Notes: generated by a model from the sequence alone, not told the origin. Shown: positions 30 through 23,029, numbered from the stretch's first letter. The stretch: 23,390 nucleotides of DNA from Candidatus Latescibacterota bacterium (GCA_965242865.1 CBDETK010000011.1:1-23390); one strand, 5' to 3'. Numbers and translations are program-made.

Positions 30-60
30 ATTTTTGATCCTAAACGCGGATATATTAGTC
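30..60 (+). promoter_or_regulatory. Possible promoter for lipoprotein gene
   Basis: AT-rich segment with a TATATT -10-like hexamer (51-56). The -35 is unclear. A small GTCAGC/GCTGAC hairpin (64-81) and an AAGGAG RBS follow before ATG 104. Confidence 0.35.
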
Positions 61-103
61 TCTGTCAGCAACAACGCTGACACCCACTTACAAGGAGCCT
101 ACG

Positions 104-454
104 ATGAAACGCTTTGCCCGCCTCACCCTAACGGCTGTTGTGGCCAGTTCCGCTTTTGCCTGCACACCAACGACCTACCAACAGGAGATGCAGGCCGCCG
201 CCGATGAGAAGATCGTACACATGGCCGATTGGCTGGCCTGCCTAAAGGAAAATGGGCGAGACAGTTCTCGCACCGCCTGCGCCGATCAAGAGTGGCAGAT
301 GAACGACGCCAACGCCAATTTCGACCGCTACATGAAAAGCTATCTTAAGTACACACAGGCGTCCAAGAGCGAGAAGATCAAGGTTACGGGCCGCTGGCGC
401 AACTACCTCACGGCTAAAGAGGATAGCCTGCACACCGTCTATAAGGTATTCTAG
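104..454 (+). CDS. Putative lipoprotein (moron-like, convergent to the structural operon)
   Basis: AAGGAG RBS. Basic N-terminus, hydrophobic stretch and lipobox-like AFA-C at Cys20. Followed by its own terminator. Confidence 0.7.
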   Translation: MKRFARLTLTAVVASSAFACTPTTYQQEMQAAADEKIVHMADWLACLKENGRDSSRTACADQEWQMNDANANFDRYMKSYLKYTQASKSEKIKVTGRWRNYLTAKEDSLHTVYKVF

Positions 455-520: not shown

Positions 521-1023
521 CATGCCCGAGCCAGCGGCCAGTCAAATTTCTTTTCGCCTACCTCATACATAAAGTCTAACCCAATATCGGGGTCGCCCAC
601 GCGCTCATTTTCGCGTTGTCGTTCGGGCGTCCAAACGGCGTCCGGTTTCAACAAGTTGAACTTGCGCTTGGAGACTTCCAACAACCATTCACCGGCCTTA
701 TCAACGGTGCTCTGTCCTGCCGTCCCCGTGAAGCGATAGCCCGTATCGGCCCATGCGCCGCCGTCCTCCCGCGAGAGAAGATAAACCGACACGGTAGCCG
801 GCCCCAGGTCTTCCGGTAGGGTCTGCCGTTGGGCGTCCGAGAGGGCGATAGCCACCGCCAACGACGGCTCCGTACCCGCCTCCAGCGTGTGCTGCGGGAA
901 ACGGACGTCGAGCAGCCGGCCCCCACCGCGATACACCTCGCTCTCAAACGTAATGTTTTGGGGGAACGTCGCCAAGCGTAGGGATGTTCCGATCTTTAAT
1001 AAGATAGCCGCGAATTGCATCAC
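520..1023 (-). CDS. Tail-tip / hub-associated minor tail protein
   Basis: Second gene after the tape measure. N-terminal 'LRLAT...ITFESEVYRGGG' and C-terminal 'WTPERQ...DIGLDF...W' resemble the small hub proteins found at this position. ATGA coupling to the upstream gene. Confidence 0.6.
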   Translation of the reverse strand: MMQFAAILLKIGTSLRLATFPQNITFESEVYRGGGRLLDVRFPQHTLEAGTEPSLAVAIALSDAQRQTLPEDLGPATVSVYLLSREDGGAWADTGYRFTGTAGQSTVDKAGEWLLEVSKRKFNLLKPDAVWTPERQRENERVGDPDIGLDFMYEVGEKKFDWPLARA

Positions 1024-4853: not shown

Positions 4854-5082
4854 TCTGTCCCTCTCCATTCTTCAAGTGTGAACCTTCAAACGTTGAATCT
4901 TCACCGCGTCCGACGACGAGGCCGCGCATTTCTCCCAGTACATATCCTATGATCATGTACACGATTTCTACATTGCCCGACAGGTAGATGGTTGCATACC
5001 CCACCAGAAACAGGAAGGCCGTAATGATAGCATACCCGCCCACCTTTTCCAGTGTGTCTCGCTTAAACCCATTACGAGCCAT
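4846..5082 (-). CDS. Small membrane protein, candidate holin
   Basis: 78 aa, two hydrophobic segments, basic N-terminus and charged C-terminus. An endolysin is present in the same module. Confidence 0.5.
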   Translation of the reverse strand: MARNGFKRDTLEKVGGYAIITAFLFLVGYATIYLSGNVEIVYMIIGYVLGEMRGLVVGRGEDSTFEGSHLKNGEGQNE

Positions 5083-5289
5083 CTACCCCCCGGCCGGCGG
5101 CTCCTGCTCACTACGATAGATGCACTCCCGCACCCACTGAACCTGCCCATTCGGGCTTCGCGCCCCCACCTGCACCCAAACAGTCAAGTGGTTATCATAC
5201 GCCCCCGGCGACTCATATTCATACCCCGCCCCCTTCTGACTCAACCGAACAATACGATCAAACTCGGCCGCATTCAAACTGATGGACAT
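5083..5289 (-). CDS. Hypothetical 68-aa protein downstream of a solitary CRISPR-like repeat
   Basis: Strong GAGGAGG RBS and ATG start. Stop abuts the next gene. Confidence 0.7.
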   Translation of the reverse strand: MSISLNAAEFDRIVRLSQKGAGYEYESPGAYDNHLTVWVQVGARSPNGQVQWVRECIYRSEQEPPAGG

Positions 5290-5325
5290 ACTCGTTCCTC
5301 CTCAAGTGAATTAAAGCATCTCGTT

Positions 5326-5361
5326 GTTTCAATCCACTTCCGCCTTAGCCCGCGGAAGAAC
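5326..5361 (-). CRISPR. Solitary CRISPR-repeat-like unit 1 (type I-C-like; not an array)
   Basis: GTTCTTCCGCGGGCTAAGGCGGAAGTGGATTGAAAC: 36 nt, 7-bp stem CTTCCGC/GCGGAAG, then TGGATTGAAAC. Confidence 0.85.
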
Positions 5362-5378
5362 TGGGCTTGCAACACCCT

Positions 5379-5424
5379 AATATACGAAAGTTTTGGAGAA
5401 ACCACGCAAAACGCACAAAAAAAA
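5379..5424 (-). promoter_or_regulatory. Putative promoter driving repeat 1 and the 68-aa gene
   Basis: TTGCGT (5409-5404), 19-nt spacer, TATATT (5384-5379), and an upstream T8 tract resembling an UP element. The spacer is longer than optimal. Confidence 0.5.
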
Positions 5425-5496
5425 TCAAAGCAACTCGTTGGCGATGATAATCAAGGCGATCATCACCGCACAAAATAGGACCGTTCCCGTTTCCAT
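5425..5496 (-). CDS. Possible 23-aa hydrophobic peptide (METGTVLFCAVMIALIIIANELL)
   Basis: GAGGGG RBS 5 nt before ATG, right after the fibre stop. Single TM-like stretch. The same DNA also folds as a 12-bp hairpin. Confidence 0.4.
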   Translation of the reverse strand: METGTVLFCAVMIALIIIANELL

Positions 5497-5505
5497 ACGA
5501 TCCCC

Positions 5506-7881
5506 TCAGTTGATCTGGTACACGTCAAATGGCATGGCATCGGCCTGAACGTTGTCGCTCGCCAAGAGCAGGTCATTGCCCGCCGTCCTCCCCACGTAGT
5601 ACTCGTGGTAGGTGCGGTCGCCGCCCGCGGGGATTTGGAAGCGCACATAGCCGCTATGATCGGCATTGCGGTCGCCGCCCACCCGCGAGCTATTCTTCAT
5701 CGCCAACTCGTGACCGAACAGCACCTTCGCCTCCGCGCCCTCGCCGCCAAAGTTAATCAAGAAGATTTTAGACGCATAGTCGGAGGGCATAGACACGTTG
5801 GCATCGACGTAAGCCGATAGGCTTGTAATGTTGAGATTGTTCGCGTTGGGACTGAGCTTGACCACCCCCGGCGGTATCGTCGGCGTATTCTGAATATCGT
5901 CGTAATCGACCGGACGCTTAGCCGCAGGTATCTCGTCCGGGTTTCCTATTAGGGTCCACGGCTCCACGTTGGGCGTCAACCGCATCCACCCGGTCGGGGT
6001 ACGCATCGTCGCCGGCTGGTAGAGCCAGATATTCCTAAAATCGGCGGTCGAAGAGTATTCTCGCTCAAACCCTCTGTGATACTGAAGGATCGCGGCGATC
6101 TCGCGGCGCGTCGCCCGCGGCTGATGCGAGTAGTCGAGCGACGCAAGCGTGCCCGTTGCGCCCGCCACCGACTGGGTATTCCGCGAGAAAGACAGTTGAC
6201 CTAAGTTCGTCCACGTCTGATCGCCCACCCGACGGATACGTACATAGAACGTAGGGTTGACCGCCTGCGTGACGGCCATCGTGCGGATCGCAACCGTAAT
6301 ACTCTGATAGCGCGGGTCGCCGCCGTCGATAAAGCCCAGTGACCACGAGATGTCGAAGGGTTGACCGTCTGCCGCCGTGTTTTGGGCGATCGTACCATTG
6401 CCGCGCCAGTCCGCGTCTTTGGAAGCACCGTCCAGAATGACCGTGCCGCGACCGCGGTTCTCGACCGTCATCTCCTCGGTGGTCAGCCCAATGATATAGG
6501 GCGCGCCCACCGACGGCTCAACCAGTTGTATCGTTCCCTCCGCAACGCCCGTGGTGGCTGTGGGCGCATCCACGCTGTGAGGCAATATGACAAGCCCCCC
6601 GGCATTGCCGTGCGTCACAGCGCGGATGGCGGCCTCTAAGCCGCTAATAAAGCGGGCGGCGATGTCAATATGCTCCAGTTGGTCGGGGGCATCCCATTGC
6701 GCTTGCAATTTGGATGCCGCGGGGATGTCCGCGATCGGCAAGTTGTAGTACCAATAATGGTCGTCGTCACCCAAATAGGTTGCGCCCGTAGTGGCAATAA
6801 CGAGGGCCTCCGCCTCGTCGCCCGTGACCACCCGAAAGAGCGCCAAGTCGTCTGTCGAAGGCTGTATTTCGTAGAGCGTCTTGGGAACGCGGAAAGCAAT
6901 GTTCTTGCCCGTCTCACGCGCCGCCACCGTCCGCGTGGCGGTGTACGTGGCCGCCTTCGCGGTCGCCTCCGTATAGGCATCGTCCGCTATGGGCGACAAC
7001 CACAGGCCATCCTCAGCGCGCCACGAGCCATCGACCACATCGTCGTTCAGTCGCTCAAGATTAGGCAGGGCCGACCGGATCGCCGCGACCGCATCGGCGG
7101 ACGTGAACGGCGGCGACGCCGCCGGAATATCCGGGCGGTTGTCTATATCCGTGTTCCAATCCCAATTCTGACCGCCCAACTCAGCCTTGTCCTTGACGTG
7201 GCTTCGTATCAGCGCGACCACCGCGGCGGCGTCTAATGAGGCCCCATTACCGCCCCCGCCCTGCCCCGTCGGCAAGTGGGAGGCCAAGATGATGCTATCA
7301 CTGGACGGCGCACGAGTGCCGAACAGGAACGCATAGACCGCTTCCTGATAGTCCCGCGCTTGGTCGTTGGCCTCTTGGCGCACCGTGGCAAACGTTAAAA
7401 TATCATCAGTGAACGCCACATCCGACGGCAAGTTCTCGCGCCGTATCGGCACGATATGGCCGTCGTCATACCGCTGCGCCCAGTCCTGCACATGCCGCAA
7501 AAACTGTTGAAACACCGGGCTGGTGGAGCTATGCGGGGGAGCCAATACGTTATCGGTGGTTTCGTGCAAATGGATGTCGTCCAAAAAACGAATGGTTCGG
7601 CTCCATACCGCCACCTCGCCCACGTTCGGCTCGGTGTTCATAATGGTCACCCTATAGTAATGACCCGCGGGCGTAGTCTCCAAAAAGATGTCGAGCATCC
7701 CCTGCGCGTTGGTACGCCCCGAAAAGCTCGTGGGCACCACCACGCCGGTCGCGGCGTTCACCCACCGCGCCGTCTCGCCGGTACGACCATACTGATCGAC
7801 CGCCTCAACCCGTACCAACTGGTACGGCAACACGCCCAAGTCAAGGTCTAACGTGCTTACATGTAATGCGTGAAGTGCCAT
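5506..7881 (-). CDS. Tail fibre / virion appendage protein
   Basis: 791 aa. N-terminal beta adaptor-like domain ('RTNAQGMLDIFL...YYRVTI'), fibre hinge-like motifs 'WNTDIDNRPDIP' and 'YDDIQNTPTIP', and modular beta domains. Confidence 0.6.
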   Translation of the reverse strand: MALHALHVSTLDLDLGVLPYQLVRVEAVDQYGRTGETARWVNAATGVVVPTSFSGRTNAQGMLDIFLETTPAGHYYRVTIMNTEPNVGEVAVWSRTIRFLDDIHLHETTDNVLAPPHSSTSPVFQQFLRHVQDWAQRYDDGHIVPIRRENLPSDVAFTDDILTFATVRQEANDQARDYQEAVYAFLFGTRAPSSDSIILASHLPTGQGGGGNGASLDAAAVVALIRSHVKDKAELGGQNWDWNTDIDNRPDIPAASPPFTSADAVAAIRSALPNLERLNDDVVDGSWRAEDGLWLSPIADDAYTEATAKAATYTATRTVAARETGKNIAFRVPKTLYEIQPSTDDLALFRVVTGDEAEALVIATTGATYLGDDDHYWYYNLPIADIPAASKLQAQWDAPDQLEHIDIAARFISGLEAAIRAVTHGNAGGLVILPHSVDAPTATTGVAEGTIQLVEPSVGAPYIIGLTTEEMTVENRGRGTVILDGASKDADWRGNGTIAQNTAADGQPFDISWSLGFIDGGDPRYQSITVAIRTMAVTQAVNPTFYVRIRRVGDQTWTNLGQLSFSRNTQSVAGATGTLASLDYSHQPRATRREIAAILQYHRGFEREYSSTADFRNIWLYQPATMRTPTGWMRLTPNVEPWTLIGNPDEIPAAKRPVDYDDIQNTPTIPPGVVKLSPNANNLNITSLSAYVDANVSMPSDYASKIFLINFGGEGAEAKVLFGHELAMKNSSRVGGDRNADHSGYVRFQIPAGGDRTYHEYYVGRTAGNDLLLASDNVQADAMPFDVYQIN

Positions 7882-7887
7882 TTCAAC

Positions 7888-8364
7888 TTACCCGCTCTGG
7901 CTTATCAGCCGTTGTTGCAAACGATTCAATTGTCCCTGTTCAATCTTGCGGAATGATCGGGACATACGCGCCGAGATGATGTTGAACAACTGCCCTTGGG
8001 TCTCAATGATAGCCCGTCGTAGGTAGGAACGCGCATCGCGCCGCTGCCGCGGGCGGATACCGTACTCCACAAAGACGGCATGACGCGCCCCCGGGCCGCC
8101 ACTGGTCACCCGCGCCCCCGCGCCCGGCACCCGCCGGACCCCGCGGTCGGTCAACACCCGCTCCGAGATGCGACGCGCCTTGATGCTGCGCCGCAACGCA
8201 CCACTCTTAACCGGCACCACGGTCTTAGCGCGGGTCGCCACCGCCCCCGCCGCCGCACGAAAGCCATCGCCCTGCACACGCTCCGCCAGCAGCACCGGCA
8301 ACGCACGAAGGCCCTGCCGTATCTCGGCCAGACCGCGGCTATCCACTTCCAGATTAATCATCAA
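7888..8364 (-). CDS. HK97 gp10-like tail component
   Basis: 'AKTVVPVKSGALRRSI', 'HAVFVEYG' and 'ARSYLRRAI' motifs. Confidence 0.85.
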   Translation of the reverse strand: MMINLEVDSRGLAEIRQGLRALPVLLAERVQGDGFRAAAGAVATRAKTVVPVKSGALRRSIKARRISERVLTDRGVRRVPGAGARVTSGGPGARHAVFVEYGIRPRQRRDARSYLRRAIIETQGQLFNIISARMSRSFRKIEQGQLNRLQQRLISQSG

Positions 8365-8965
8365 GCGTTAAGAGTACTTCGGCTTTTCGCCGCGCACGGA
8401 TAGACCGTAGCGTCCAGCCGCGCAAATATTTCAGGTTTTTGCCGTCGGCCGCATCCACATTCTCAGCCACCAGATGCTCAAAATAGTGAAACTGATCCAG
8501 TTCCCCCAAACCGCGTTCCCCGCGTTCCTCGAAAATATCACTCACGGCGGCTAAGGTCCCCGGCCCGTAGAAGCCATCGGCAAAGCCGGGCGCAAGCGAC
8601 CCATCGAAATCCATGCACACCTGCTGCAACGCCCGCATAGCCCGCCGCGGCGACCGGGCACACATCTGCGAATACTGAAACTGTAGATGCGCCGGCACCT
8701 TATCGAGATGAAACTGAGTGTAATACTTTTCGTAAAACGCATCCAAGTGTTCACGCAACGCCTCCGCCACCTCGTCCGAGTCCAAGTCCGTACCATCCAA
8801 CTTATAGCCGTCGATCAAGACCCAGCCCGACCAGTCGGCGTTATGAACGCGGGAAACGCCCGAATAGGTTTCACCGCCAGAATCATCGGGATCGTTGACA
8901 TAACGCCCTTCCTCGTCAATGGTCTGGTCCACGATTGCCTTGAGAACTTTTTCGTCAATACTCAT
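8354..8965 (-). CDS. Endolysin, glycoside hydrolase family 108
   Basis: 'EEGRYVNDPDDSGGETYSGVS' catalytic motif, 'DGFYGPGTL', and C-terminal 'KYLRGWTLR' peptidoglycan-binding-type motif. AGGAGAGG RBS. Confidence 0.88.
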   Translation of the reverse strand: MSIDEKVLKAIVDQTIDEEGRYVNDPDDSGGETYSGVSRVHNADWSGWVLIDGYKLDGTDLDSDEVAEALREHLDAFYEKYYTQFHLDKVPAHLQFQYSQMCARSPRRAMRALQQVCMDFDGSLAPGFADGFYGPGTLAAVSDIFEERGERGLGELDQFHYFEHLVAENVDAADGKNLKYLRGWTLRSIRARRKAEVLLTLDD

Positions 8966-8975
8966 GATCCTCTCC

Positions 8976-11900
8976 TTATAACGTTACTTGGTACGTGCGG
9001 CTCCGCGCATAGATGCGCCGATCGCGCACGATACCCACTTCGTCAAAAAGCCCATCGGACAGTTGCAAGCGTTTCGTCTCGTTGAGCGACGCCAGCAACA
9101 GTTTATCCAAGTCCGTCACCTCCTGCATCGTCCCGGCCCGCGCAATGACGCGCACCTGGTGCGCCGTGTCCTTACCCTGCTTCAGCCCCGGCTCATACAG
9201 GTTACCCGTCACTTGGTAGTAAATGGCCGGCACCGGACTGTCACTGCGTTCCCGCTGGGCGCTGATACGCTGCGTCCCTTCCTCGTCGTCCTGATAGACC
9301 ACCGAGTCTAAGTCCAAAAGCACCGGCTCGACGCGCACGGGCGGCTCCAACGTTTCGCCTTCCGTCTCGGTGCGGTACGCCGTGAGGACGCGCCGCGCTA
9401 TCTCGACAATGATCTCAATCGGGTCCATACGCCGTCCGCGCAAGGTAGAGGGTATCTGTATGACCGCCCCGCCCGGCGGCTGGGGAGGCTGAGTAGGGCT
9501 ACGAACAATGAACACGCGAACACCTCCCATCGTTACTTGATCCGCCGTGAAGAGGACCTTTGCGCCAGCGCGACCTATCGCTACTACGTTCACATCCCGC
9601 ACGTCCGCGCCAGCCACACGCAACGTATCAACATGTAAATTAGTTAAACCGAATACAATAGGCAAGACCTCAACACGCCCTATGCGGGCGCGCGGCGGGC
9701 GCATGAACGTTTTTTGAGCAGCCAGCTCAGTAGTAAGGTCGACTACCCGGGGCTTGCCCACATCGAGCTTGGGCAGACGCCTAAAGATGCGCTGTCGGAG
9801 GCGCGGCACCCCGGGCGCAACGCCCCCCATCACCGTCGCAGGGAACGGCATGAACACGTGCCTGTGACGGCGTAGGGCTGGCTGCGCCAGCTTGATTTTG
9901 CCCAGCCTTGTTACATCGGGACGCCACGCCACCGGCGGCGTCTGCAAGGTCAGGAGTGGGCGACGCGCGACCACCCCGCCCATAGACACCGCCTGCGGAC
10001 GCCACACGGTGAACGGCTGTAAGCGATGGGAAACATCCGCGACCGCAACAGGGCCTATCGTCATCGCGGCGAGCGTCAACGGGATCGACGGAGCAACCCG
10101 CGTCACCCCATCGGCCGCCACGGCGATAGCCCCCACGCGCACCCGGCGGGGCGTCAACATGAACGTGCTATGACGAGTATCAAGGGGCGTGTCGGCCACC
10201 GACACCGCCCCGATCAAGCGACGGGCAAGCGTCAGGGAGGCCACGCCCCTATTCGTAATCGCGGCATCCTCTACATCGACGCCGCCCACCCGCAAGCGCG
10301 GCAAGCGCCCCAACGAGACCGAGACGACCGGGATAGTAGTAGCGGCATCCGCCACATCGACGCCACCCACCCGCAAGCGAGCGACGGGCAACGCCTGCTG
10401 CCCCACCGCTACCTGCGTCGGCAACCGCCTAACATCAATGCCGTCTATCTGCACATGCCCCAGCGTCAGGGACACCGCGGGCTTGACCTGCAACGTCGTA
10501 AGATCGGTTACATCAAGACCGCTTATATCGCTCACACGCTTAAGGGATAGGCTCGTAGCGGGCTTGACCTGCAACGTCGTAAGATCAGATACATCAAGAC
10601 CGCTTATATCGACTTGCGCGGGAGACAGGACCGTCGAAGGCTTGACCTGCAACGTCGTAAGATCGGTTACATCCAGACCGCTTATATCAACACGCTCAAG
10701 GGGTAGGTTCGTAGCGGGCTTGACTTGCAACGTGGTAAGATCCGTTACATCAAGACCGCCTATATCGACTTGCGCGGGAGACAGGACCGTCGAAGGCTTG
10801 ACCTGCAACGTCGTAAGATCGGTTACATCCAGACCGCCTATATCGACGCGCTTGGGTCGTAAGGCCAATGGCGGCACCACGATACGCAAGGGCGCATCAT
10901 GCGCTTCAACCCTACCCGTCTTGATGCGGGGCGGGGCCATGGTCTGGGCGGGCGTTATGTTCAACGGGCGGGCCTCATGCACCTCAAGGCCACCCACACG
11001 GAGCCGTGCCAGCGCCAGGCGCTGGGCCGGCGTCACCCGCAACGTCGTAGCATCGGACACCGCCAACGCGCCCACGTCCGTCTGCGGCAATGACAGCGCC
11101 ACGAGGGGATGGGTGACCGCGGTGGTCAGCGGCTGGCTATCCACCGGGCCAACCAGCACCGGTGCCAACGCGAGCGTCTGTGCCGGGATGGCAACCAACG
11201 CCGTCGGGTCGGCCACGCGCACCGGGCCGACAGACCGCCGCGTCAAGCGCAGGGCGACCGCGGGCGTTACATTCGTAGTAGGCGCATCGCCAATAGACAG
11301 GCCGCCCACCTCAACCCGCGTCAGCGTCAGGGCGAGCCGATCATGCCGCACGCGCAACGACGCATCGCCGCTCTCTATCTGCCCGATCGTCACCCGCTCG
11401 GGGGTCATGGATACCGCCGGCGTAACCCGGGTGCTACGCAGGTCGCGCACATCCGCGCCACCCACATCGACCCGCGACAGCGACAAGGACACGGCGGGCG
11501 TTACATTCGTAGTAGGGGCGTCCCGCGTAGCCTGTATGCCCCCTATATCGACCGTGGGGCAGCTGGAGCGGTATGATAGGCCCGACCGCTCGCAACAACG
11601 ACGGCGCGACCGCAACAGGCCCTACATCCGTCTCAGGGGTACGGAACGATGTTTGGGGCGTTACCGTGGCCAGCTCGCTACGCGCCTTGACCCGCCCCAG
11701 GGCGGTACGAGGCAACGACAGAGACACCACGGGCGTTACCGTCAAATGCGTCGCATCGCCAATCGCCACCCGCCCCACGTCCAAGCGGCGCGGCAACAGG
11801 CTTGCGGCCGGCGTCACATTCGTAGTGGGCGCATCGCCAATCGCCAACCCACCCACATCGACACGCTCCGCCCGCAAGACGACCGCCGGGATGACGCGCA

Positions 11901-13638
11901 TAGGCTGCGGATCGGCTATCGCCAGCCCCCCCACATCGACGCGCTCAAGGGGCAGCGGCCGCTGCGGCGCCACGGGCGTCAGCCCCCCATCCGCCACCGC
12001 CACGCCACCCAACGAGAGGCGCGCTACCCGCGCCGACACCGCCGGCGTTACATTCGTCGTAGGCGCATCGCCAATAGACAAGCCGCCCACGCGCAAGCGC
12101 GCCGGGCGAGCCGTCACATAGGGACGCTCCGCCGTCAACGACGCATCCGTCAACTCTATCTGCCCGATAGACACCCGGGCGGGCGTCAGCACCTGCGCGG
12201 GCGTCCTGTTCACGCTCGACGGATCCCGCGCATCGACACCGCCTATATCCGTCTGCGGTAACAACAGCGGCTGCCGCTCAATCGCTAACGCCGTAATAGC
12301 ATCGGCCACCGCCAACCCCCCCATAGCGGTCGGCGGTAGCGACAACGGTAGCCGCAGCTTAGTGCGGGGGGCTTGCGGCTGGACGCCCCCCACCGCCACC
12401 CGGTCGGGCGTCAGGACCGTGGCAACAGTAACCCCCCCCAACGAGGCATCCGACACCGACAGACCACCCACCGCCGTCCGCGGCAACGACAACGGCTGCT
12501 TGGGAAGCAACGCCGTCGTAGCATCCGACACCGCCAACCCACCCACAACCGTCCGCGGCAACGACCACGACACCGCCGGCGTCACAGCCACATGCGTAGC
12601 ATCCGACACCGCCAACCCACCCACAGAAGTCGTCGGCAACAAGAACGACACCTGCGGCGTCACCTTCGTCGTAGCATCCGCTACCGACAAACCACCTACA
12701 TCTAACTGAGAAAGAGAAAGCTCAACGCCCGAACTGACCGCGCCATAAAAACCTCTGAAATTGACACGGGTGAAGCTGCCAATGGTAGGCAGTTCGCCTA
12801 CCAGCGTCGTTGTGTGCGGTGTGTTGTACTGTGGGGACCGGGCAAACGTGATCTGATGGACCGCCGGCGTCGGACGGTCGTCGGACAAAATAGCGTATAA
12901 GGTAGTGCCGTCCGTGAACAGTCGAGGGCTATCTAATCGTATCTCACCATAGCTGACATGATTGTTAAGATTAGAAAGGGAAGCACGGCTAAGTCTAGAT
13001 CTGGAACTCGACTGATAAGCCGAGAAATAGAGATACGAACCCAACTTGACACCCGAACCAAAAGGACGGGGAGCACTGCTGCTGCTCCTTCTAGAAAAGC
13101 CAACACGGCGGATAGCCCAGTTCGTCCCGGTAGCCGAACACGTGAGCTCGTATAAATCGTAATCCCAACTGTTATACGTAGGGCCATCCGAGTCAGTGGT
13201 CCTATCATGCGTCAACCGAAAGAGATAATAGCTACGACTATTATTGTATATGATAGGCCCACGAAAGCTGTATTGTACCGTACGGTGATACCGTACACGA
13301 CCATAAATATCGCGCCCATAGCTCTGGCTTATATTCTGTGGTAGGATGTTGTTATACTCGGTGGCGTTGCTGGCAATCAGTCCGCCCAAGGGGTCGTTGA
13401 TAACCCATAGGCTGCGGTTGGCAATCGTCAGGATGCGCGGCGTGTCGTTGCCACTGGCATCGGGAACCATCCCCAACGCAAACCAGCCACCAATCGTCGG
13501 GCGCGACGTATTCTCCCAAGAGGCCCCCGATAGCTTGGCCGACGACAAGGGCGGGTCAATCGTAAGGAGCTCCCCGCGTTCACTGCCGCCAGCATCCCTT
13601 CTAGCACCATCTATATTGCGAAACAGAAACTTAGCCAT
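8976..13638 (-). CDS. Giant (~1,553 aa) repeat fibre-like protein with C-terminal tail-terminator-like domain; one +1 frameshift at ~11557
   Basis: ORFs 11434-13638 and 8976-11615 carry the same ~26-aa repeat. Removing one base from GGGG at 11556-11559 restores the register 'LQLPTVDIGG'. Confidence 0.75.
9500..12720 (-). repeat. Coding tandem repeat, ~78 bp / 26 aa, roughly 40 units
   Basis: Consensus approx. LxLxRVDVGGLxVxDAxTxVTPAVS. Five near-identical DNA units at ~10480-10850. Boundaries are approximate. Confidence 0.9.
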
Positions 13639-13651
13639 CGTCCTATCCTAT

Positions 13652-13693
13652 AAAAAAAGAGGCAGACTGCGTCCTTGAACACAACCTGCCTCT
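13652..13693 (-). terminator. Intrinsic terminator upstream of the giant gene
   Basis: AGAGGCAGGTTGTGTT / GACGCAGTCTGCCTCT 16-bp stem with G-U pairs on the minus strand, followed by a T run. Confidence 0.8.
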
Positions 13694-13716
13694 ATACACG
13701 ATCCCCGCGCTGAAAC

Positions 13717-14079
13717 TTAGTCGGCGACAGTCGTATAGGTGATGCTCGCCTCCGGCACGGTGACGGCCGCATAGCCGCTCACGGCCACCTCGACCGTGGC
13801 GCTCGTCATCGCCCGCACCGTCAAGCCGTTCTGCGCCGTCAGGTAGGCTTCCCATGCGGCCTTGACCGCCGCATCCTCACCATCCCCCTTCTCAAACCGC
13901 ACGTCGATACCATTCGCCGGTATCGTAAGCTCGTTGTTGATCGGAACGGTGACGCTGGCCGACAACGCATCCGTCGCCAACACCGTCGAGCCAATCTGAT
14001 AGCGCACATGCGTAACAACCGCCTGCGCCGCAAACGTCCCCAACGATAGGGCATTGGAGTTCGTAATCTTGGTAGCCAT
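13717..14079 (-). CDS. Small virion beta protein (collar/fibre-associated family-like, apparently permuted)
   Basis: AGGAGA RBS. Motifs 'TN...L......VTH', 'VTV...NELTIPANGIDV' and 'EVAVSGYAAVTV'. Confidence 0.65.
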   Translation of the reverse strand: MATKITNSNALSLGTFAAQAVVTHVRYQIGSTVLATDALSASVTVPINNELTIPANGIDVRFEKGDGEDAAVKAAWEAYLTAQNGLTVRAMTSATVEVAVSGYAAVTVPEASITYTTVAD

Positions 14080-14105
14080 AAAAATCTCCTTGTCTGGTAG
14101 TTAGG

Positions 14106-14834
14106 TTAGCTCGAAATCTCGACGACCCAGTCGTTGATATGACTGGTCGGCTGCACAGTGAACGACGTTTGCAGGTTGCCCCCGTCCGGCGCATCCGCGC
14201 CGGGCTTGCCAAACCGCGCCGCATACCGGACCCGCAGCTTGGGCGTGACCACCTTGAAATCGGCATCCGCCGCCACCGACGTGGGCGGAGCCAGCGTGCT
14301 GCGGCTGCCATCCGCGCTATACTGAATAATGCCCGTCCCGCCGCTCCCCCGCTCAACAACCCACGGAGTAGCCCCCTTGCCGTCGTCCTGCAGCTCGTCA
14401 ATGACATACGCTTTCCCGTCAATGATAAGCACCGCACCGCGCCCCACATCGTCAAACGGGATGTCAGGCGAACCCACAAGCGTTACAATGCCCGTGCCGG
14501 CAATCGCCGCCGTTACGCCGCTCGCACTGTTGTTATCAAAGAACTCAGCCTGTGCGGTCGTGAACTGAACATTGACCAGGGTCCCCTTGATCGCCGCATC
14601 CCGCACAAAACGCCACGCCGGATGAACGGGGTTATAGAGCGACGTAATCGTGACGGGCGCGACCTCCGGTAGGTCCGTCGAAGCCAAGCTGTCCTTGAAC
14701 GTTTGGATGGTCTCGCTGTTCAGGTCGCCGCCCCCCTCGCTGTGCGACTGCACCCCCGGTAACGACTCATACGTACCACGAATCTGAACGGAAACCTCCG
14801 CCCCTTGTACGGGTATGTTGATGCTATCTGCCAT
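14106..14834 (-). CDS. Major tail (tube) protein
   Basis: AGAGGAG RBS. Tube-like N-terminal half ('YESLPGVQS...ITSLYNPVHPAW') and C-terminal strands flank an inserted beta segment. Confidence 0.7.
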   Translation of the reverse strand: MADSINIPVQGAEVSVQIRGTYESLPGVQSHSEGGGDLNSETIQTFKDSLASTDLPEVAPVTITSLYNPVHPAWRFVRDAAIKGTLVNVQFTTAQAEFFDNNSASGVTAAIAGTGIVTLVGSPDIPFDDVGRGAVLIIDGKAYVIDELQDDGKGATPWVVERGSGGTGIIQYSADGSRSTLAPPTSVAADADFKVVTPKLRVRYAARFGKPGADAPDGGNLQTSFTVQPTSHINDWVVEISS

Positions 14835-14855
14835 GGTAGAACTCCTCTTTTGGTT

Positions 14856-15179
14856 TTAAGTGGCGGCTACACAAAACAACGTCAGCCACCGTCGATCAAA
14901 CTCTTTGACCCAGCGTATCGACCACGTGCGCCCCACATCATCCACGACATACCAGCGGGGCGTCATAGCCCGCAACGTGGGGCTCCAACGAAAACGAAAC
15001 GTGGTCTGCCATTGCTCGACGTCCACCCCCACCTCCTCCGTGTCGCGCCCCCCGCGGTCTATCCGCGTAGCAAAGACAATATGCTCCACCGGGGTATTGC
15101 GCTGCGGGTCACCGTGCGATGTCGTACCCGTCACCGCACCGGGTTCGTAGAGTCGGATGCGACGCGTACCCTCGGCCAT
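14856..15179 (-). CDS. Head closure / head-tail adaptor (SPP1 gp16-like)
   Basis: 107 aa after the connector. 'RIRLY', 'TTFRFRW' and 'GRTWSIRWV...RRWLTLFC' pattern. Confidence 0.8.
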   Translation of the reverse strand: MAEGTRRIRLYEPGAVTGTTSHGDPQRNTPVEHIVFATRIDRGGRDTEEVGVDVEQWQTTFRFRWSPTLRAMTPRWYVVDDVGRTWSIRWVKEFDRRWLTLFCVAAT

Positions 15180-15183
15180 GGCG

Positions 15184-15753
15184 TTAGTCTAACGCGGCGT
15201 GAAGGGGACGCAACGGCCCCAACAGCCGATCCAGCGCACGAAAATCATTCGGCAGGCCCCCGCCGTTGTATAGCTGCCGCACCAGCAAGACCAACGCCTG
15301 CGCCAGCACCGTATCTTTGGGGCGACGACCCAGCGTCAACCCGAGGGTCACATTCAGACGCCAGCGCAGATCCCGAGCATGGGCCGGCCACCCGGCCGGC
15401 GGCGCGTTCACGACAACAACATCCGTCGTCGGCGTCACCGTCGTCTCCACATCACCCCAATCATCCGTTTCAATCCACTCTCCCTCCGAAGAAGGAGAGA
15501 AATACGCGATGCTCTGAAGACTCTTGAACCCTCGCGCCTCAAACACAAGCGCATTCATCGCGCCCATGGGCGGGTTCGTCGAAAGAACACTCGGCCTATC
15601 CACCAGCGGGTAGTCTATGCTCGCCTCGACCCACCCCACCGCCGACGCCAACTGCTCTAACAGAAGCGTATCGTGGTAGGTCTCATCCACCGCTAAACGC
15701 AATTCTAAGCGCAAGCGATCTAACGAGCATATATCGGTAGGCTGAGCGACCAT
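15184..15753 (-). CDS. Head-tail connector (HK97 gp6-like, long form)
   Basis: 'SLDRLRLELRL...DTLL..QL.SA...VE' and 'QALVLLVRQLYN...LLGPLR'. Confidence 0.85.
   Translation of the reverse strand: MVAQPTDICSLDRLRLELRLAVDETYHDTLLLEQLASAVGWVEASIDYPLVDRPSVLSTNPPMGAMNALVFEARGFKSLQSIAYFSPSSEGEWIETDDWGDVETTVTPTTDVVVVNAPPAGWPAHARDLRWRLNVTLGLTLGRRPKDTVLAQALVLLVRQLYNGGGLPNDFRALDRLLGPLRPLHAALD
15467..15502 (-). CRISPR. Solitary CRISPR-repeat-like unit 3, inside the connector CDS
   Basis: TTTCTCTCCTTCTTCGGAGGGAGAGTGGATTGAAAC: stem at positions 4-25 (9 bp, TTCG loop) and the identical 3' tail. Confidence 0.75.
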
Positions 15754-15759
15754 TTGGCG

Positions 15760-16173
15760 TTAGGAGCGCGTAGGCTTGGGCTTGGGACGCTTAGCGTCGC
15801 GGGTCTCCACCTCGACGCCCTGCCGACGCGCAAGCTCGACCAATTTTCGTGGCGTATCTCGATGCGCCAACAGACCCACGTCATGGATTCGCAACAAATT
15901 AACCAGCATCTCTTCCTCCGTTTCTTGGCGCACCGCCAGACCGCGCGACACCATATCGTCCACCTCAGAGGCCGGCACCAGCACTAACTGACCGCGCTTA
16001 TACGGACAGCCCCCCGGGGCCACCCAATGGGTACGAAGGCGCACCCGCTCCAGCGGAATATCCTCCTTGCGCTTCTCACCCTCCAAGCGGTGCTCCTCCA
16101 GCTTGGCGCACGCTTCTTGGTGGCGACGCTCTTTCTCACGCGCCGCCGCCAACGCCATCGTCATCGTAGGCAT
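15760..16173 (-). CDS. Post-capsid hypothetical protein
   Basis: GAGGAGAGGGG RBS. 'YKRGQLVLVP..EVDDMVSRGLAV' resembles small domains often encoded after HK97-like capsid genes. Confidence 0.65.
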   Translation of the reverse strand: MPTMTMALAAAREKERRHQEACAKLEEHRLEGEKRKEDIPLERVRLRTHWVAPGGCPYKRGQLVLVPASEVDDMVSRGLAVRQETEEEMLVNLLRIHDVGLLAHRDTPRKLVELARRQGVEVETRDAKRPKPKPTRS

Positions 16174-16188
16174 ACCCCTCTCCTCTCT

Positions 16189-16224
16189 GTTTCAATCCAC
16201 TCCCGACTTAGCCCTCGGGAGAAC
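16189..16224 (-). CRISPR. Solitary CRISPR-repeat-like unit 2
   Basis: GTTCTCCCGAGGGCTAAGTCGGGAGTGGATTGAAAC, 32/36 identical to unit 1, starting 16 nt after the capsid stop. Confidence 0.85.
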
Positions 16225-16240
16225 TGGGCTTACGCCCGCC

Positions 16241-17710
16241 CTACTGCGCCTTGATCTTCAGTTTGACGATCGCCTCACAAACCGCGCCGTCTTTGACGCC
16301 GATATACCGCCCGTCCAAGCGAGCAAACGCAACGACTTTCTCCGAAAAGTTGGACGCCGTGCCGCTATCCCAGAAGCGGAAGAACAACATGCCGTTGACC
16401 ATACGCTCCATGTAATAGCTGCCATTGCCAAAGACCAGCGGGTACGTGTTATCCCCCACGTCATCCATGTTCGGATTCAACTGGTACGGATAGCCCAAGA
16501 TCGTGCCCGGCGTACCATCCCGAAGGCTCGGCAACCAGATCGGATTATCCTGCGTGTCCTTGATCTTCGTCACGGTCTTGAGCGCATCGTAACTCATGCC
16601 CCAACCAATACGTCCCCCTTCCTCGGTCGTAAAGCCGTACATGGGGTCCTCGCGCCCTTCCTTGTAAGCCGGATCGATCGCGTAGACCATATCAACGATG
16701 TCGTCAAAGCCAATCGTGCGCGACGCCGCACTCGTCAGCCCCTCTTTCGCGCCCGTGACCAACCCCTCCGGCTTCGTATCCGCCGCACCCGCCGCCGTGG
16801 TGACCGTCAACTCCTTGTTCTTCAAGCGAGCAATACGCGCCAAGCAGATGTCCTGCATCTCGGGGATACCGCCATTCTCCAAGATGGTATCCGTCTCAAA
16901 CTCCATCGTGATCGGGATGAAATCGGACGTATAGGTGTGCGCCTTCAGGACCAGCGTAGTGATGTTCGGCGCATCCACATCGTTGATAGCCGAACCCTCC
17001 GCCGACAAGCGACGACCCATCTGAGCGGTCGGATCCATCTGCATAATGCGGATGTCTTGCCCGGTCTCCGTAACACGCGTCCGAACAAAGCTGCCCCACC
17101 CGCCAAAAGCCTTCAGACGGTGTACCAGCCAGTTGGGATACTGAACGGCAATCGACTCTTGCCCCGTAGCCGCATCGCCCGCCACCAACCCCACCAGCGG
17201 AACGCGCGTAGCCGCCACCACAGGCGCCTTCACAAACAAGGGCGTCGGCGACTTCCACTGCGTGCTCTGCCACCCCTCAAGGTCGCTCCCATGCAGCTTG
17301 TGAAACTCGGCCATGCTCTCCTCAGACGACTGCAACCCCTCGTCCCGAAGACCGCCCCCCTGCGACATCTTGCCCGCAAAATAGTTCTTCCAACGCATAC
17401 TATCATGCGTTCGCAGCGCCATCGGATCGGGCAACCGATTCTCAGGACGCAACCGCTCCAACGCATCCAAGTCGCCGCGCAAGCTGTCCAACCGACGACC
17501 GAGGAACCCGTGCTCGTAGTGCAGAGCAAGATGCTTCTCCGCCATCCCCTCCACCGCACCGCCCTCAAACTTGATGCGCTTCTCGCGGTTCATGTCGTTC
17601 AACTTCTCGGTGACGTCGTCATACTCGGCCCGAACTTTGGCCTCCTCCGTCAACGTCTCATCGAACGTCTTTTTGTCCCACTTGCTAAAGCGGGATTTGG
17701 GAACTGTCAT
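16241..17710 (-). CDS. Major capsid protein, HK97 fold
   Basis: N-terminal coiled-coil delta domain, 'KIKDTQDNPIWLPSLRDGTPGTILGYPY', 'LVFGN' and 'FARLDG'. Start set at ATG 17710 (GGAGG RBS, TAATG coupling). Confidence 0.95.
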   Translation of the reverse strand: MTVPKSRFSKWDKKTFDETLTEEAKVRAEYDDVTEKLNDMNREKRIKFEGGAVEGMAEKHLALHYEHGFLGRRLDSLRGDLDALERLRPENRLPDPMALRTHDSMRWKNYFAGKMSQGGGLRDEGLQSSEESMAEFHKLHGSDLEGWQSTQWKSPTPLFVKAPVVAATRVPLVGLVAGDAATGQESIAVQYPNWLVHRLKAFGGWGSFVRTRVTETGQDIRIMQMDPTAQMGRRLSAEGSAINDVDAPNITTLVLKAHTYTSDFIPITMEFETDTILENGGIPEMQDICLARIARLKNKELTVTTAAGAADTKPEGLVTGAKEGLTSAASRTIGFDDIVDMVYAIDPAYKEGREDPMYGFTTEEGGRIGWGMSYDALKTVTKIKDTQDNPIWLPSLRDGTPGTILGYPYQLNPNMDDVGDNTYPLVFGNGSYYMERMVNGMLFFRFWDSGTASNFSEKVVAFARLDGRYIGVKDGAVCEAIVKLKIKAQ

Positions 17711-18480
17711 TATAAGAACCTCCATTCGCCGGCGTTATCGCCGTATAGGTTATAATACTGCATCATCTGTTCCTGCCGAACCCTCTCCGCCTCAGCCCGC
17801 AACGTGCTTTCTGATTCCTCCCCCGGCTCGTCGATCGCGACCTCAATCACCCTATCGGCCAACCCCACCTCCACCGCCTCTTCCGCGCTATACCACGTCT
17901 CCTCACGAAGCGCCGCCTGCACCTCCTCCAACGAGGAGTTGGTCATGCGCTTCGCATACAAGCCCGCGACCTCGTCGTTCATCTTCCGAGCGGTATCGAC
18001 GATCTTTTGGACGGCCTCCACGTCGCCGCGCAAAACCAACTGCGCGCCGTGAATCATCACCGAGGTCATAGCCGAAAGAGCGATGTCGCTGCCCGTTATC
18101 ATAATGAGCGAAGCGGCACTCGCGGCCATGCCATCGACCTGCACGTTGACCTTATCGCCCTTCTTCTTGCGCTCGCTGATCAGGTTCAGGATCGCACTCG
18201 TTTCAAAAATGTCCCCGCCCGGCGAGTTGATCCGAATGAGCACGTCCCCCGTAATCGCGTCAAGCTGCTCTTGGAAAATTTGGGCCGACATCACCGAATC
18301 ATCGCCCCACCAAGCGCGGAGGAATTCGGCATCGGCATGATTCATGATTTCTCCATAGAGAAGTATTTCATTATCACGATCACGAGCGAGACTCACCTTC
18401 GCGGGCTGATACTTCGCCCAGACATCGGGCGAGATGTTGCTGAACCGACGACGAAGTAAAGCCTTTAGTTTCTTGTCCAT
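17710..18480 (-). CDS. ClpP-type prohead maturation protease
   Basis: 'RINSPGGD', 'DGMAASAAS', 'MIHG' and 'ETWYSAEEAVEVGLAD'. Confidence 0.95.
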   Translation of the reverse strand: MDKKLKALLRRRFSNISPDVWAKYQPAKVSLARDRDNEILLYGEIMNHADAEFLRAWWGDDSVMSAQIFQEQLDAITGDVLIRINSPGGDIFETSAILNLISERKKKGDKVNVQVDGMAASAASLIMITGSDIALSAMTSVMIHGAQLVLRGDVEAVQKIVDTARKMNDEVAGLYAKRMTNSSLEEVQAALREETWYSAEEAVEVGLADRVIEVAIDEPGEESESTLRAEAERVRQEQMMQYYNLYGDNAGEWRFL

Positions 18481-22950: not shown

Positions 22951-23029
22951 TGGAGCGCGAGGCGGGACTCGAACCCGCGACCGCGGACTTGGCAAGCCCG
23001 TACTCTACACCAAACTGAGCTACTCGCGC
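22951..23029 (-). tRNA. tRNA-Gly(GCC)
   Basis: GCGCGAG/CTCGCGC acceptor stem, U discriminator plus CCA, TAGCTCAG D arm, CGGGC-TTGCCAA-GTCCG anticodon arm and GGTTCGAGTCC T arm. Confidence 0.95.

Follow-up and report, generated by a model that had tools for sequence, protein, structure and literature searches.

The window analysed here, a stretch of 23,390 nucleotides, carries on its minus strand phage late genes (terminase large subunit, portal, protease, major capsid, neck and tape measure) and, around them on the same coding strand, three units of 36 nt each, hereafter labelled U1, U2 and U3 (Table 1). Read on that strand, their sequences are GTTCTTCCGCGGGCTAAGGCGGAAGTGGATTGAAAC (U1), TTTCTCTCCTTCTTCGGAGGGAGAGTGGATTGAAAC (U2) and GTTCTCCCGAGGGCTAAGTCGGGAGTGGATTGAAAC (U3), and the copies lie 722 nt and 10.1 kb apart. 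A search of the window for the 12-mer GTGGATTGAAAC at up to one mismatch gave three matches, each of them exact and on the minus strand, where 0.09 would be expected by chance and 0 of 100 shuffles gave three; this confirms the three singly oriented 36-nt units described in an earlier note on this DNA, and at the same tolerance the window holds no further copy. Family searches and a repeat search also bore out the note's claim that the window has neither cas genes nor a CRISPR array. The units are repeat-like and solitary, each standing apart from any second repeat on a mobile element, and none belongs to a spacer-bearing array next to cas genes; a spacer of array length flanked by two or more repeats is absent from the window and present on a sibling contig, C4. 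Across the whole assembly, of which the window is one contig, GTGGATTGAAAC has 14 exact copies, 12 of them on three phage contigs, against 0 for a reversed control.

Every unit is predicted to form a stem from C4 to G25, as the note had proposed and folding reproduced, followed by an unpaired 11-nt tail, TGGATTGAAAC, that is identical in all three. The stems of U1 and U3 have 7 bp and that of U2, capped by a UUCG loop, has 9, with fold energies of -12.1, -14.4 and -12.2 kcal/mol for U1, U2 and U3 and modest z-scores of -2.4, -2.0 and -1.9. The units form two structural classes, A (U1 and U3) and B (U2). The class A units differ from each other at 4 positions (6, 10, 19 and 23), which are two compensatory swaps, 6:23 and 10:19. 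This four-position pair had been given as units 1 and 2; position-by-position comparison shows instead that it consists of the copies at 5326 and 16189. U2 is more distant in sequence, with 16 of 36 positions different from U1 and 15 different from U3. The units retain the elements that Cas5c recognises according to published work: a stem ending in G, UGG directly after it and the single-stranded tail ending AUUGAAAC. The stem and loop appear free to vary by compensatory change. All three accordingly show the hallmarks of type I-C repeats, namely a stem of about 7 bp with an 11-nt single-stranded 3′ tail, and UGG 3′ of the stem in a tail with that ending.

Class A units have a further feature, in which AGCCC in the 5′ flank can pair with GGGCT in the loop. 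Alignment and pair counting over nine class A units found 45/45 cells paired, and the pairing covaries, with one pair seen as GC, CG and UG and another as UG and CG. We regard it as a candidate second helix or pseudoknot; such pairing is impossible for an array repeat, because spacers differ. At U3 the flanking AGCCC can alternatively pair with an upstream GGGC to give a small GUAA hairpin.

U1 and U3 are intergenic. U1 lies 144 nt past the stop codon of a 791-aa ORF and 36 nt ahead of the ATG of a 68-aa ORF, downstream of a promoter-like motif, GTATATTAG, that has 4 occurrences in 63.7 kb of phage contigs, every one upstream of an accessory element, and 7 in the 5.6-Mb chromosome. A simple scan for sigma-70 promoters passed over this motif and flagged none at U1, U2 or U3. 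Judging from the motif, U1 probably stands at the head of a separate transcript and is not confined to the late mRNA, so that the earlier proposal of units carried in sense on this mRNA stands for their orientation but probably needs amending for U1. U3 sits 16 nt past the capsid stop codon and 15 nt ahead of the ATG of a 137-aa ORF. U2, by contrast, is intragenic, and its assignment as intercistronic was wrong: it forms codons 84–96 (Y-F-S-P-S-S-E-G-E-W-I-E-T) of a 189-aa ORF whose protein has 127 homologs at E <= 0.001, most of them about 180–195 aa long and matching end to end, and no family in Pfam or PHROGs. In an alignment of 20 of the 127 homologs with the window protein, the U2 segment coincides with a variable loop and adds no residues compared with the homologs. 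The ORF is conserved, looks like a head–tail gene and is apparently essential.

Table 1. Features of the window, with the mini-array of sibling contig C4.
Feature	Position	Strand	Description
Accessory locus	50..454	+	promoter-like motif 50-58; 116-aa ORF 104-454
Protospacer-like site for C4 spacer 1	845..880	-	31/36 bases match
68-aa ORF downstream of U1	5083..5289	-	no family found
U1, class A	5326..5361	-	stem 5358-5352 with 5343-5337; loop GGGCTAAG; tail TGGATTGAAAC 5336-5326
U1 5′ flank	5362..5375	-	AGCCC 5367-5363 can pair with loop GGGCT 5351-5347
Promoter-like motif GTATATTAG	5377..5385	-	15 nt upstream of U1
Next ORF	14856-15179		weak PF05521 match
189-aa ORF containing U2	15184..15753	-	conserved phage protein between head genes and head-completion-like gene
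U2, class B	15467..15502	-	9-bp stem, UUCG loop, tail TGGATTGAAAC; in frame within gene
137-aa ORF directly downstream of U3	15760..16173	-	no family found
U3, class A	16189..16224	-	identical to U1 apart from the swaps 6:23 and 10:19
U3 5′ flank	16225..16238	-	AGCCC can pair with loop GGGCT
Major capsid protein gene	16241..17725	-	phrog_15928 and phrog_10 (major head protein); directly upstream of U3
C4 mini-array	12365-12543 of C4		U1-type unit, 36-nt spacer, host-type repeat, 35-nt spacer, end-degenerate repeat

Beyond the 3 units of the window, 17 more were found, 7 on sibling contig C2 and 10 on C4. All 20 copies on C2, C4 and C11 are sense to the local genes, and the units of C2 and C4 end 2–13 nt before start codons, with 5′ flanks rich in TAG stops. 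Contig C4 also carries a mini-array, preceded by GTATATTAG, at the site that holds the accessory locus in the window and nothing in C2. Its repeats 2 and 3 are the host repeat with one change, U for C at the first handle base, the third being end-degenerate, and U1 with 40 nt of upstream flank is 93% identical to its leader and first repeat. Spacer 1 matches the phage family at 30–31 of 36 positions; at its window site, spacer positions 1, 3 and 6 are among those mismatched, and GGA stands in the 5′ flank in place of TTC.

Units are gained and lost among variants 92–98% identical, as expected under an arms race. In C4, U1 is replaced by about 80 other bases, with the 68-aa gene and the promoter-like motif still present, and U3 is duplicated, the two copies being identical while the 40 nt between them differ at 7 positions from the upstream flank; in C2, a pair of A and B units is inserted. 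Insertions are accompanied by duplication of the preceding 24–30 nt. Contigs of the same samples show the U1-less form in 2 of 4 runs and the U3-duplicated form likewise in 2.

The cognate system that the earlier note had proposed to search for was found in the same assembly. The chromosome (contig C13) carries cas3-cas5c-cas8c-cas7-cas4-cas1-cas2 beside a 41-repeat array, and all seven Cas proteins score at or above NCBIfam cut-offs (Cas3 via HD and helicase core domain models). The single cas5c gene is chromosomal, and its product resembles solved Cas5c endonucleases (E = 7e-41). The array repeat has the same build as the units, with the 3′ tail CGGATTGAAAC, and differs from them at 14–18 of 36 ungapped positions; the first handle base is U in every unit and C in all 41 host repeats, and the handles are otherwise alike. 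We infer the phage–host link, and with it a host of matching subtype, from shared binning, from the C4 mini-array repeats (35/36) and from a host spacer that holds a unit end. An integrated phage copy is not among the grounds for this link. In a search with the host's 96 spacers (40 + 56), none matched C2, C4 or C11; no present targeting is visible. The host cas operon itself contains a repeat-like unit that fills the 36-nt cas7–cas4 gap exactly and ends at the cas4 ATG, as well as a leader-like piece and a degenerate repeat ahead of cas1, and in a same-genus genome two repeat-like units of a chromosomal operon stand immediately ahead of start codons.

Relatives of the class B unit occur elsewhere as arrays. 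U2-like repeats with 24–36 other letters between them are found in contigs of all 4 runs (3 samples of 1 study), and arrays in three IMG/VR contigs have 22–27 of 36 positions in common with U2 and an identical 3′ end. In the IMG/VR contig L047, units are followed directly by an ATG. For class A units, searches of GTDB and of metagenome contigs gave no relatives.

Together with the complete I-C operon, the C4 mini-array and the U2-like arrays support the assignment to type I-C, which had rested on repeat shape. The units are very probably solitary repeats that descend from type I-C CRISPR repeats and sit on a tailed phage whose likely host has a complete I-C system. As to function, we favour, at roughly even odds (about 0.5), RNA anti-CRISPRs of the Racr kind that would soak up Cas5c or Cascade; RNA decoys for Cas proteins are a trick already known in outline. 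The sequence, structure and orientation of the units, the host cas genes, the hybrid mini-array and the gain and loss of units are the observed steps of this scheme. Transcription of U1 would start at the promoter-like site ahead of it, U2 and U3 would form part of the abundant late mRNA, and together they would offer Cas5c many extra sites for binding and cutting. Cleavage would leave 5′ handles, and Cas7 and Cas8c could assemble on these into unproductive complexes, which would draw Cas proteins off real crRNAs and weaken immunity; we infer these steps, from transcription through Cas5c binding and cleavage to the effect on immunity. In C4, a crRNA directed against related phages would take its handle from the U1-type first repeat of the mini-array.

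Several observations weigh against such decoys. An inhibitor needed early in infection is badly placed in a late structural operon, and U2 lies within an apparently essential gene, so a Cas5c cut there would destroy that mRNA. The divergence from the host repeat includes U rather than C at the first handle base, which belongs to the trinucleotide read most closely by one studied Cas5c, so recognition by the host enzyme is not assured. The lack of a matching host spacer tells in the same direction, as does the fact that no acr-like neighbour of the units was recognised. The repeat-like units in the host cas operon and in the same-genus chromosomal operon point to a native, non-defence use. Finally, the phage–host link itself depends on binning, the mini-array repeats and one host spacer.

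A rival reading is operon punctuation, in which the phage would borrow host Cas5c to cut polycistronic RNA at the hairpin bases. Cleavage would give an upstream fragment, such as the capsid message, with a protective hairpin at its end, and a downstream fragment whose 11-nt leader, starting with a 5′-OH, would lie immediately before the next ribosome binding site. The placement of U1 and U3 agrees with this, as do the positions and TAG-rich flanks of the C2 and C4 units, the cas7–cas4 and cas1 elements of the host, the same-genus pair and the L047 units. We nevertheless consider it unlikely: U2 is in coding sequence, where a cut would be harmful; phage gene expression would depend on a dispensable host enzyme; and close variants without U1 or with extra units are otherwise unchanged, so no single site is needed. 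A broader version, which we likewise hold doubtful, is that the units are natural RNA-processing or control signals read by Cas5c outside CRISPR arrays, in phage and host operons alike. Phage units, some stiffened by the flank–loop pseudoknot, would cut and stabilise operon RNAs while tying up Cas proteins, and the host lineage would use the unit in its cas operon (cas7/cas4 and cas4/cas1) and in other chromosomal operons. If true, a Cas nuclease would have a housekeeping role in gene expression, copied by the phage.

The units might also be scars or seeds of mini-arrays, by-products of phage–array recombination at the common handle. They would then do little by themselves in the window, and the form of use would be a mini-array that turns host Cas against rival phages. 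The near-identity of the U1 region to the C4 leader and first repeat would fit this origin, as would the hybrid make-up of the C4 array, whose phage-type and host-type repeats are what recombination at a common 3′ end would give, and the duplications that accompany insertions; mini-arrays against related viruses are, moreover, already known (PMC11656645). We think it quite unlikely, since stems are kept by compensatory change and the 11-nt tail is invariant, the identical U3 copies of C4 beside 7 differences in 40 nt speak for selection on, or conversion of, the unit, and neutral scars need not all be in sense.

Very improbable, in our view, are phage RNA structures unlinked to Cas, such as stability hairpins, pseudoknots or sites for phage or host RNA-binding proteins, whose likeness to the CRISPR handle would be inherited and no longer used. 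The covarying flank–loop pairing, denied to array repeats, the differing first handle base and the want of class A relatives in GTDB or metagenome contigs would suit them. The tail, however, is conserved to the base although stems differ at up to 16 positions, and a class A unit opens a mini-array whose spacers are of array length. Nor is GATTGAAAC a general chromosomal motif (34 copies on the chromosome, a number reached by 14 of 200 permuted 9-mers), and intrinsic terminators are rejected, the hairpins having no U-tract and the scan giving 0 terminator-like sites in 15300-16400 and 2 in 4900-5700, neither at U1. A REP/MITE-like element scattered in both orientations, which the earlier note had named among the outcomes that would refute it, is ruled out by the 20/20 sense copies on phage contigs and by the chromosome, where hairpin-bearing copies are only those of the array and cas operon.

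Among known systems, phage T7 mRNAs have RNase III sites between genes, where this host endoribonuclease cuts hairpins and leaves stabilising 3′ hairpins. Punctuation by inter-cistron hairpins cut by a host enzyme would resemble these sites, except that the enzyme would be a CRISPR endoribonuclease, not universal in hosts, and the cutting here is hypothetical. Cas5c cuts canonical I-C repeats at the 3′ base of a 7-bp stem, leaving an 11-nt handle, and BhaCas5c reads mainly U22-G23-G24, tolerating changes in loop and 5′ overhang (PMC8524198). The units share the 7-bp stem, the 11-nt 3′ tail and UGG after the cut site; they are 36 nt long and outside arrays, with 8-nt loops (4 nt in U2), as against 32 nt and 5-nt loops in canonical repeats (PMC8524198). 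Cracr elements, viral crRNA-like regulators that repress cas promoters, also pair a phage repeat-like element with downstream sequence, including type I-C and stacked cases; what defines them is that 9 or more PAM-proximal bases match either a host cas promoter or a guarded toxin gene (bioRxiv 10.1101/2024.10.29.618823). The 9-nt seeds after each unit gave two chromosomal hits with a TTC flank, neither near the cas locus, and with no cas-promoter match of at least 9 bases there we reject the units as Cracr.

Mini-CRISPR arrays on viruses are used in conflicts between related viruses, according to a review (PMC11656645). The C4 array is similar in having 3 repeats, 2 spacers, host-like repeats and a spacer resembling a phage-family gene; it differs in that its first repeat is of phage type rather than host type, its spacer match in the window is imperfect and without a TTC flank, and the window has no spacer-bearing array. 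Closest are the Racrs, solitary repeat units in phages, of which RacrIC1 inhibits type I-C (Camara-Wilpert et al. 2023, PMC10651486). Like them, each unit here is a single repeat-like phage element of the host's subtype that keeps hairpin and handle (PMC10651486); RacrIC1 lies within a longer mRNA, bicistronic with acrIC5 (PMC10651486), and the window units are likewise proposed to lie on longer mRNA. The published search treated a location in coding sequence, as seen for U2, as probably false (PMC10651486), and a search of passages of that paper found no mention of several units per genome. The phage family described here differs in these respects, with units in a late structural operon, flank–loop pairing, no recognised acr neighbour, a putative activity, and many copies per genome (3 in the window, 10 on C4 and 7 on C2) in two structural classes.

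Reading the window sequence bears out the three 36-nt, type I-C repeat-like units of the earlier note, hereafter U1, U2 and U3, each of which has GTGGATTGAAAC as its minus-strand 3′ end. A search of the window for this 12-mer that tolerated one mismatch gave three matches, each of them exact and on the minus strand, against a chance expectation of 0.09, and none of 100 shuffles gives three. Every unit folds into a C4-G25 stem followed by an 11-nt unpaired tail (the handle); U1 and U3 have stems of 7 bp, the stem of U2 is 9 bp long and carries a UUCG loop, and the folding z-scores, on 36 nt, are modest (-1.9 to -2.4). A four-position compensatory difference (pairs 6:23 and 10:19), previously placed between units 1 and 2, does exist, but it separates the unit at 5326 from that at 16189; 16/36 and 15/36 positions, respectively, distinguish these two from the unit at 15467. 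The units are indeed embedded, in sense, in a phage structural operon, the minus strand of the window being the phage late operon. Two large ORFs of this operon without a family match, which probably encode tail or fibre proteins with repeat domains, contain long runs of diverged direct repeats of 75-78 nt (also 156 and 234 nt), a block without counterpart in the sibling phage contig C4. An Rfam search of the window gave nothing above the gathering threshold except one tRNA; the phage tRNA-Gly (GCC) is 76-80% identical to chromosomal tRNA genes.

Positions of the units and of other features in the phage contigs, the host chromosome and comparison loci
Feature	Sequence	Position	Strand	Content
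U1	window	5326-5361	minus	class A unit
U2	window	15467-15502	minus	class B unit
U3	window	16189-16224	minus	class A unit
Late operon, upstream part	window		minus	HNH endonuclease, terminase large subunit, portal, protease, major capsid
Late operon, middle	window		minus	U3, 137-aa ORF, 189-aa ORF with U2 inside, head-completion-like ORF
Late operon, next part	window		minus	large repeat-rich ORFs, endolysin-like ORF, neck protein, 791-aa ORF
Late operon, downstream end	window		minus	U1, small ORFs, tape measure protein
189-aa ORF	window	15184-15753		contains U2
Large ORF	window	8976-11615	minus	879 aa
Large ORF	window	11434-13638	minus	734 aa
Repeat block	window	10190-12730		inside the two large ORFs
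tRNA-Gly (GCC)	window	22951-23029	minus
Match to mini-array spacer 1	window	845-880		phage-family gene
Joint without U1	window	5326 to 5397
Joint behind 189-aa gene	window	15181-15191
Mini-array	C4	12365-12543
Extra stretch	C4	about 25940-26019		compare window 15180-15191
Motif copy	C4			upstream of mini-array
Motif copy	window			upstream of 116-aa ORF
Motif copy	C4			upstream of 68-aa gene
Motif copy	window			15 nt upstream of U1
I-C array spacer 5 from leader	C13	3525491-3525526		compare C2:282-317
Repeat-like stretch before cas1	C13	about 3527360-3527480		L015 1560-1680
Repeat-like unit, cas7-cas4 gap	C13	3528138-3528173	minus	L015 2339-2374
Host array 2	C13	4796508-4800849	plus	locus L017
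Hairpin-plus-handle units	L084 (G031:C54)	ends 10627, 7169	minus
I-C-like units	L047	ends 6644, 8648, 8721, 11687	plus

The window is all of C11, one of the 13 contigs of an assembly that holds 14 copies of the 12-mer (0 for the reversed control), 12 of them on the small contigs C2, C4 and C11. These three are 92-98% identical to one another over long stretches and are thus variants of one phage. C13, the 5.6-Mb chromosome of the likely host, carries a 41-repeat array with the repeat TCTCCCCTTGCTTTGGTGAGGGGAGCGGATTGAAAC, adjoined by cas3, cas5c, cas8c, cas7, cas4, cas1 and cas2; all seven products reach the NCBIfam cut-off for type I-C or general Cas models, and the cas5c gene, the only one in the assembly, encodes a product whose sequence resembles solved Cas5c endonucleases (E = 7e-41). 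With a complete I-C operon and array in the same assembly, the subtype call no longer depends solely on repeat shape, its only basis before, although phage units and host repeat share only their build and last ten bases, and 14-18 of 36 ungapped positions differ. The first handle base is U in every phage unit and C in 41/41 host repeats.

Among the spacers of the host I-C array, numbers 36-38 have matches of 27-32 nt (97-100%) in the small contigs C9, C12 and C6, two in each contig and about 10.4 kb apart; these contigs represent a different mobile element, apparently assembled as a tandem duplicate. In the fifth spacer from the leader, the last 16 nt are the reverse complement of the 3′ end of a phage unit and the remaining part matches no contig of the assembly; its sequence suggests that it probably came from an unsampled element carrying either a unit of this kind or a repeat with the U-type handle. 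A second host array (57 repeats, 56 spacers) has type III genes upstream, namely Cas10-like, Csx10, Csx7-like RAMPs and Cas1; of these spacers, 17/56 have matches (≥94%, ≥35 nt) on the chromosome of the host itself, one of them to a repeated element found at about 20 sites.

A search with GTGGATTG over the assembly's twelve small contigs identified hairpin-bearing units on C2 (7), C4 (10) and C11 (3) and on none of the others, every one oriented like the genes around it. Class A consists of U1, U3 and five more distinct forms, with loops GGGCTRAG, GGGGTGAG or GGGGTGAA and a 5′ flank (A, then G/C/T, CC and C/T) complementary to the loop. Over nine distinct sequences, 45/45 cells of this flank-loop helix are paired, with one pair taking the forms GC, CG and UG and a second the forms UG and CG. 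In the main stem, 92% of cells pair and three pairs have changed on both sides; when the partner is slid by 1-3 columns, pairing falls to 57% or less. All nine are closely related and come from a single assembly, which makes the flank-loop pairing a lead, not proof. The pairing would form a pseudoknot and is impossible in an array, whose repeats are flanked by spacers; in U3, the flank can alternatively form a small GUAA hairpin. No outside set for covariation was obtained, because searches with the phage capsid protein gave no close phage relatives: no IMG/VR locus by peptide patterns, 0/75 other family genomes, and only matches below 31% identity among GenBank phages. Relatives of class A were sought in GTDB (24 matches, all coding look-alikes without the hairpin) and in metagenomes (4 matches, none a unit).

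Class B, made up of U2 together with related units on C2 and C4, resembles the repeats of real arrays: three IMG/VR contigs contain I-C arrays of 11-17 copies each whose repeats have 22-27/36 positions in common with U2 and are identical over the last 16 bases. Of the four holders that a search for sequencing runs brought up, none is recorded as RNA. Contigs of four public runs were also compared with the window; they derive from three samples of one study, possibly the assembly's own source, and are hence not independent. All four contain end-to-start pieces of U2 with 24-36 intervening letters, with four different inserts, which we read, from sequence, as a likely array of U2-like repeats carried by a co-sampled organism or element. 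Such an array is found neither in this assembly nor in the family's 75 other genomes, and its organism was not found, since in the family/order search GAGTGGATTGAAAC has more than one copy only in the window's own genome and a single copy in 5/75 others, and GAGAGTGGATTGAAAC occurs in 0/75. An IMG/VR search for GGGAGTGGATTGAAAC returned 46 contigs, at least ten with hairpin plus handle and the remainder with the match coding (E-W-I-E-T) in an ORF; around ten such ORFs, the neighbours are mostly unassigned in function, and therefore no general position rule emerges. In one IMG/VR locus from an unrelated virus (L047; 14.7 kb, 65% G+C), two of the same-strand units form a mini-array of repeat, 37-nt spacer and degenerate repeat, and an ATG directly follows two units.

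For the 189-aa ORF that contains U2, phmmer finds 127 relatives at E ≤ 0.001, mostly 180-195 aa long and matching end to end, where a word-based homology search gave only the C4 copy. In an alignment of the window protein with 20 of the 127, U2 provides the codons for residues 84-96, within a variable loop, with no insertion relative to the aligned relatives. Given its perfect 9-bp stem and loop, the exact handle abutting them and its class B kin elsewhere, U2 is hard to credit to chance, and the unit seems to have been written into the coding sequence.

The C4 mini-array starts with a U1-type unit and a 36-nt spacer, continues with the host repeat bearing a single C-to-T change and a 35-nt spacer, and closes with the C-to-T host repeat again, its end degenerate. 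Spacer 1 matches a phage-family gene at 31/36 positions in the window and 30/36 in C2 and C4 itself, with mismatches including spacer positions 1, 3 and 6 and a flank of GGA, not TTC; a virus-borne mini-array aimed at relatives is a known pattern (PMC11656645). Here the phage-type unit occupies the position where the repeat must supply the crRNA 5′ handle, which is the strongest indirect sign that the units are read by I-C machinery. The corresponding locus holds a 116-aa ORF in the window and nothing in C2. The motif [GA]TATATTAG, with 4 copies in 63.7 kb of phage contigs and 7 in the 5.6-Mb chromosome, may be a promoter-like signal; a simple sigma-70 scan does not flag it. U1 with 40 nt of upstream flank is 93% identical to the leader and first repeat of the mini-array.

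Where the window has U1, C4 has about 80 other bases. U3, single in the window, is doubled in C4; the two copies are identical, and the 40 nt between them show seven differences from the upstream flank. C2 carries an inserted pair of class A and class B units, with about 28 nt of the sequence before it duplicated as well. The U1-less joint and the U3 duplication joint are each present in 2/4 runs. An additional 75 nt or so, present in C4 behind the 189-aa gene, hold promoter-like TTCGTATAAT and a GC-rich hairpin and form another small intergenic cassette varying between variants; a joint at this place is present in two runs.

Repeat-like units also occur in chromosomal operons. One occupies exactly the 36-nt cas7-cas4 gap of the host, ending at the cas4 ATG, and cas1 is preceded by a copy of about the final 24 nt of the array leader, by a degenerate repeat and by another copy of the handle. 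The cas operon of a same-genus genome, G049, has no such units; its I-C array (locus L025) has the repeat TCTCCCCTTGCTTCGGTGAGGGGAGCGGATTGAAAC, with the U-type handle of the phage units only in the last repeat. In L084, a locus of another genome of the genus, two units lie 3.4 kb apart, the downstream one ending 5 nt 5′ of an ATG and the other abutting the start of the next listed ORF, in a chromosomal operon with ATPase-like and HslV-like peptidase ORFs and no recognisable phage character.

According to PMC8524198, the Cas5c cleavage site is the 3′ base of a 7-bp stem, the product keeps an 11-nt handle, and one studied Cas5c reads chiefly the U-G-G that follows the cut while tolerating altered loops and 5′ overhangs. 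The phage units keep the parts that Cas5c reads, and the remainder varies by compensatory change. Solitary phage repeats act as RNA anti-CRISPRs (Racrs), among them one for type I-C within a bicistronic RNA (PMC10651486). On these two grounds we favour, at a probability of about 0.5, a Racr-like sponge, in which the units would take up Cas5c, Cas7 and Cas8c. The late-operon position and the U in place of C in the handle speak against it; also counted against it are the host spacers, of which 0/96 match C2, C4 or C11, and the lack of a recognised acr gene near the units. That the units are RNA-processing sites between cistrons appears unlikely: it would fit their placement just before start codons, here and in the same-genus chromosomal operon, and the units within the host cas operon, but U2 argues against a pure inter-cistron cut-site role, as a cut there would destroy the message. 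Somewhat less likely again, the units are scars or seeds of mini-arrays, in keeping with the hybrid C4 array and the duplications; a Cas-independent RNA structure, which would fit the flank-loop pairing, is improbable. A Cracr-type guide (a crRNA-like regulator) against the cas promoter is rejected by the lack of a seed match near the cas locus, an intrinsic terminator by the lack of a terminator-like site at any unit, and a REP-like element by the common orientation on C2, C4 and C11.

With phage units and the likely host's complete I-C locus in one assembly, this is a compact natural system for asking how a type I-C system responds to repeat mimics of differing dose, position and structure, whether Cas5c cuts messenger RNAs and how phage mini-arrays arise. 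Solitary repeat units and mini-arrays in phages are both already known kinds. To our knowledge, solitary phage repeats, recently recognised as RNA anti-CRISPRs, have so far been described as single and intergenic, with their own promoters, whereas this phage lineage has many dispersed sense copies in two structural classes, one copy within a coding sequence, flank-loop pairing, a handle that differs from the host's at one fixed base, and copies gained or lost between near-identical co-occurring variants. Several units per genome are not mentioned in the passages of PMC10651486 that were searched, and intragenic repeat matches are regarded there as probably false; searches restricted to intergenic, truly solitary matches will miss cases like this phage's. 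Compared with known phage mini-arrays, the hybrid array of C4 differs in using a phage-type unit as its first repeat.
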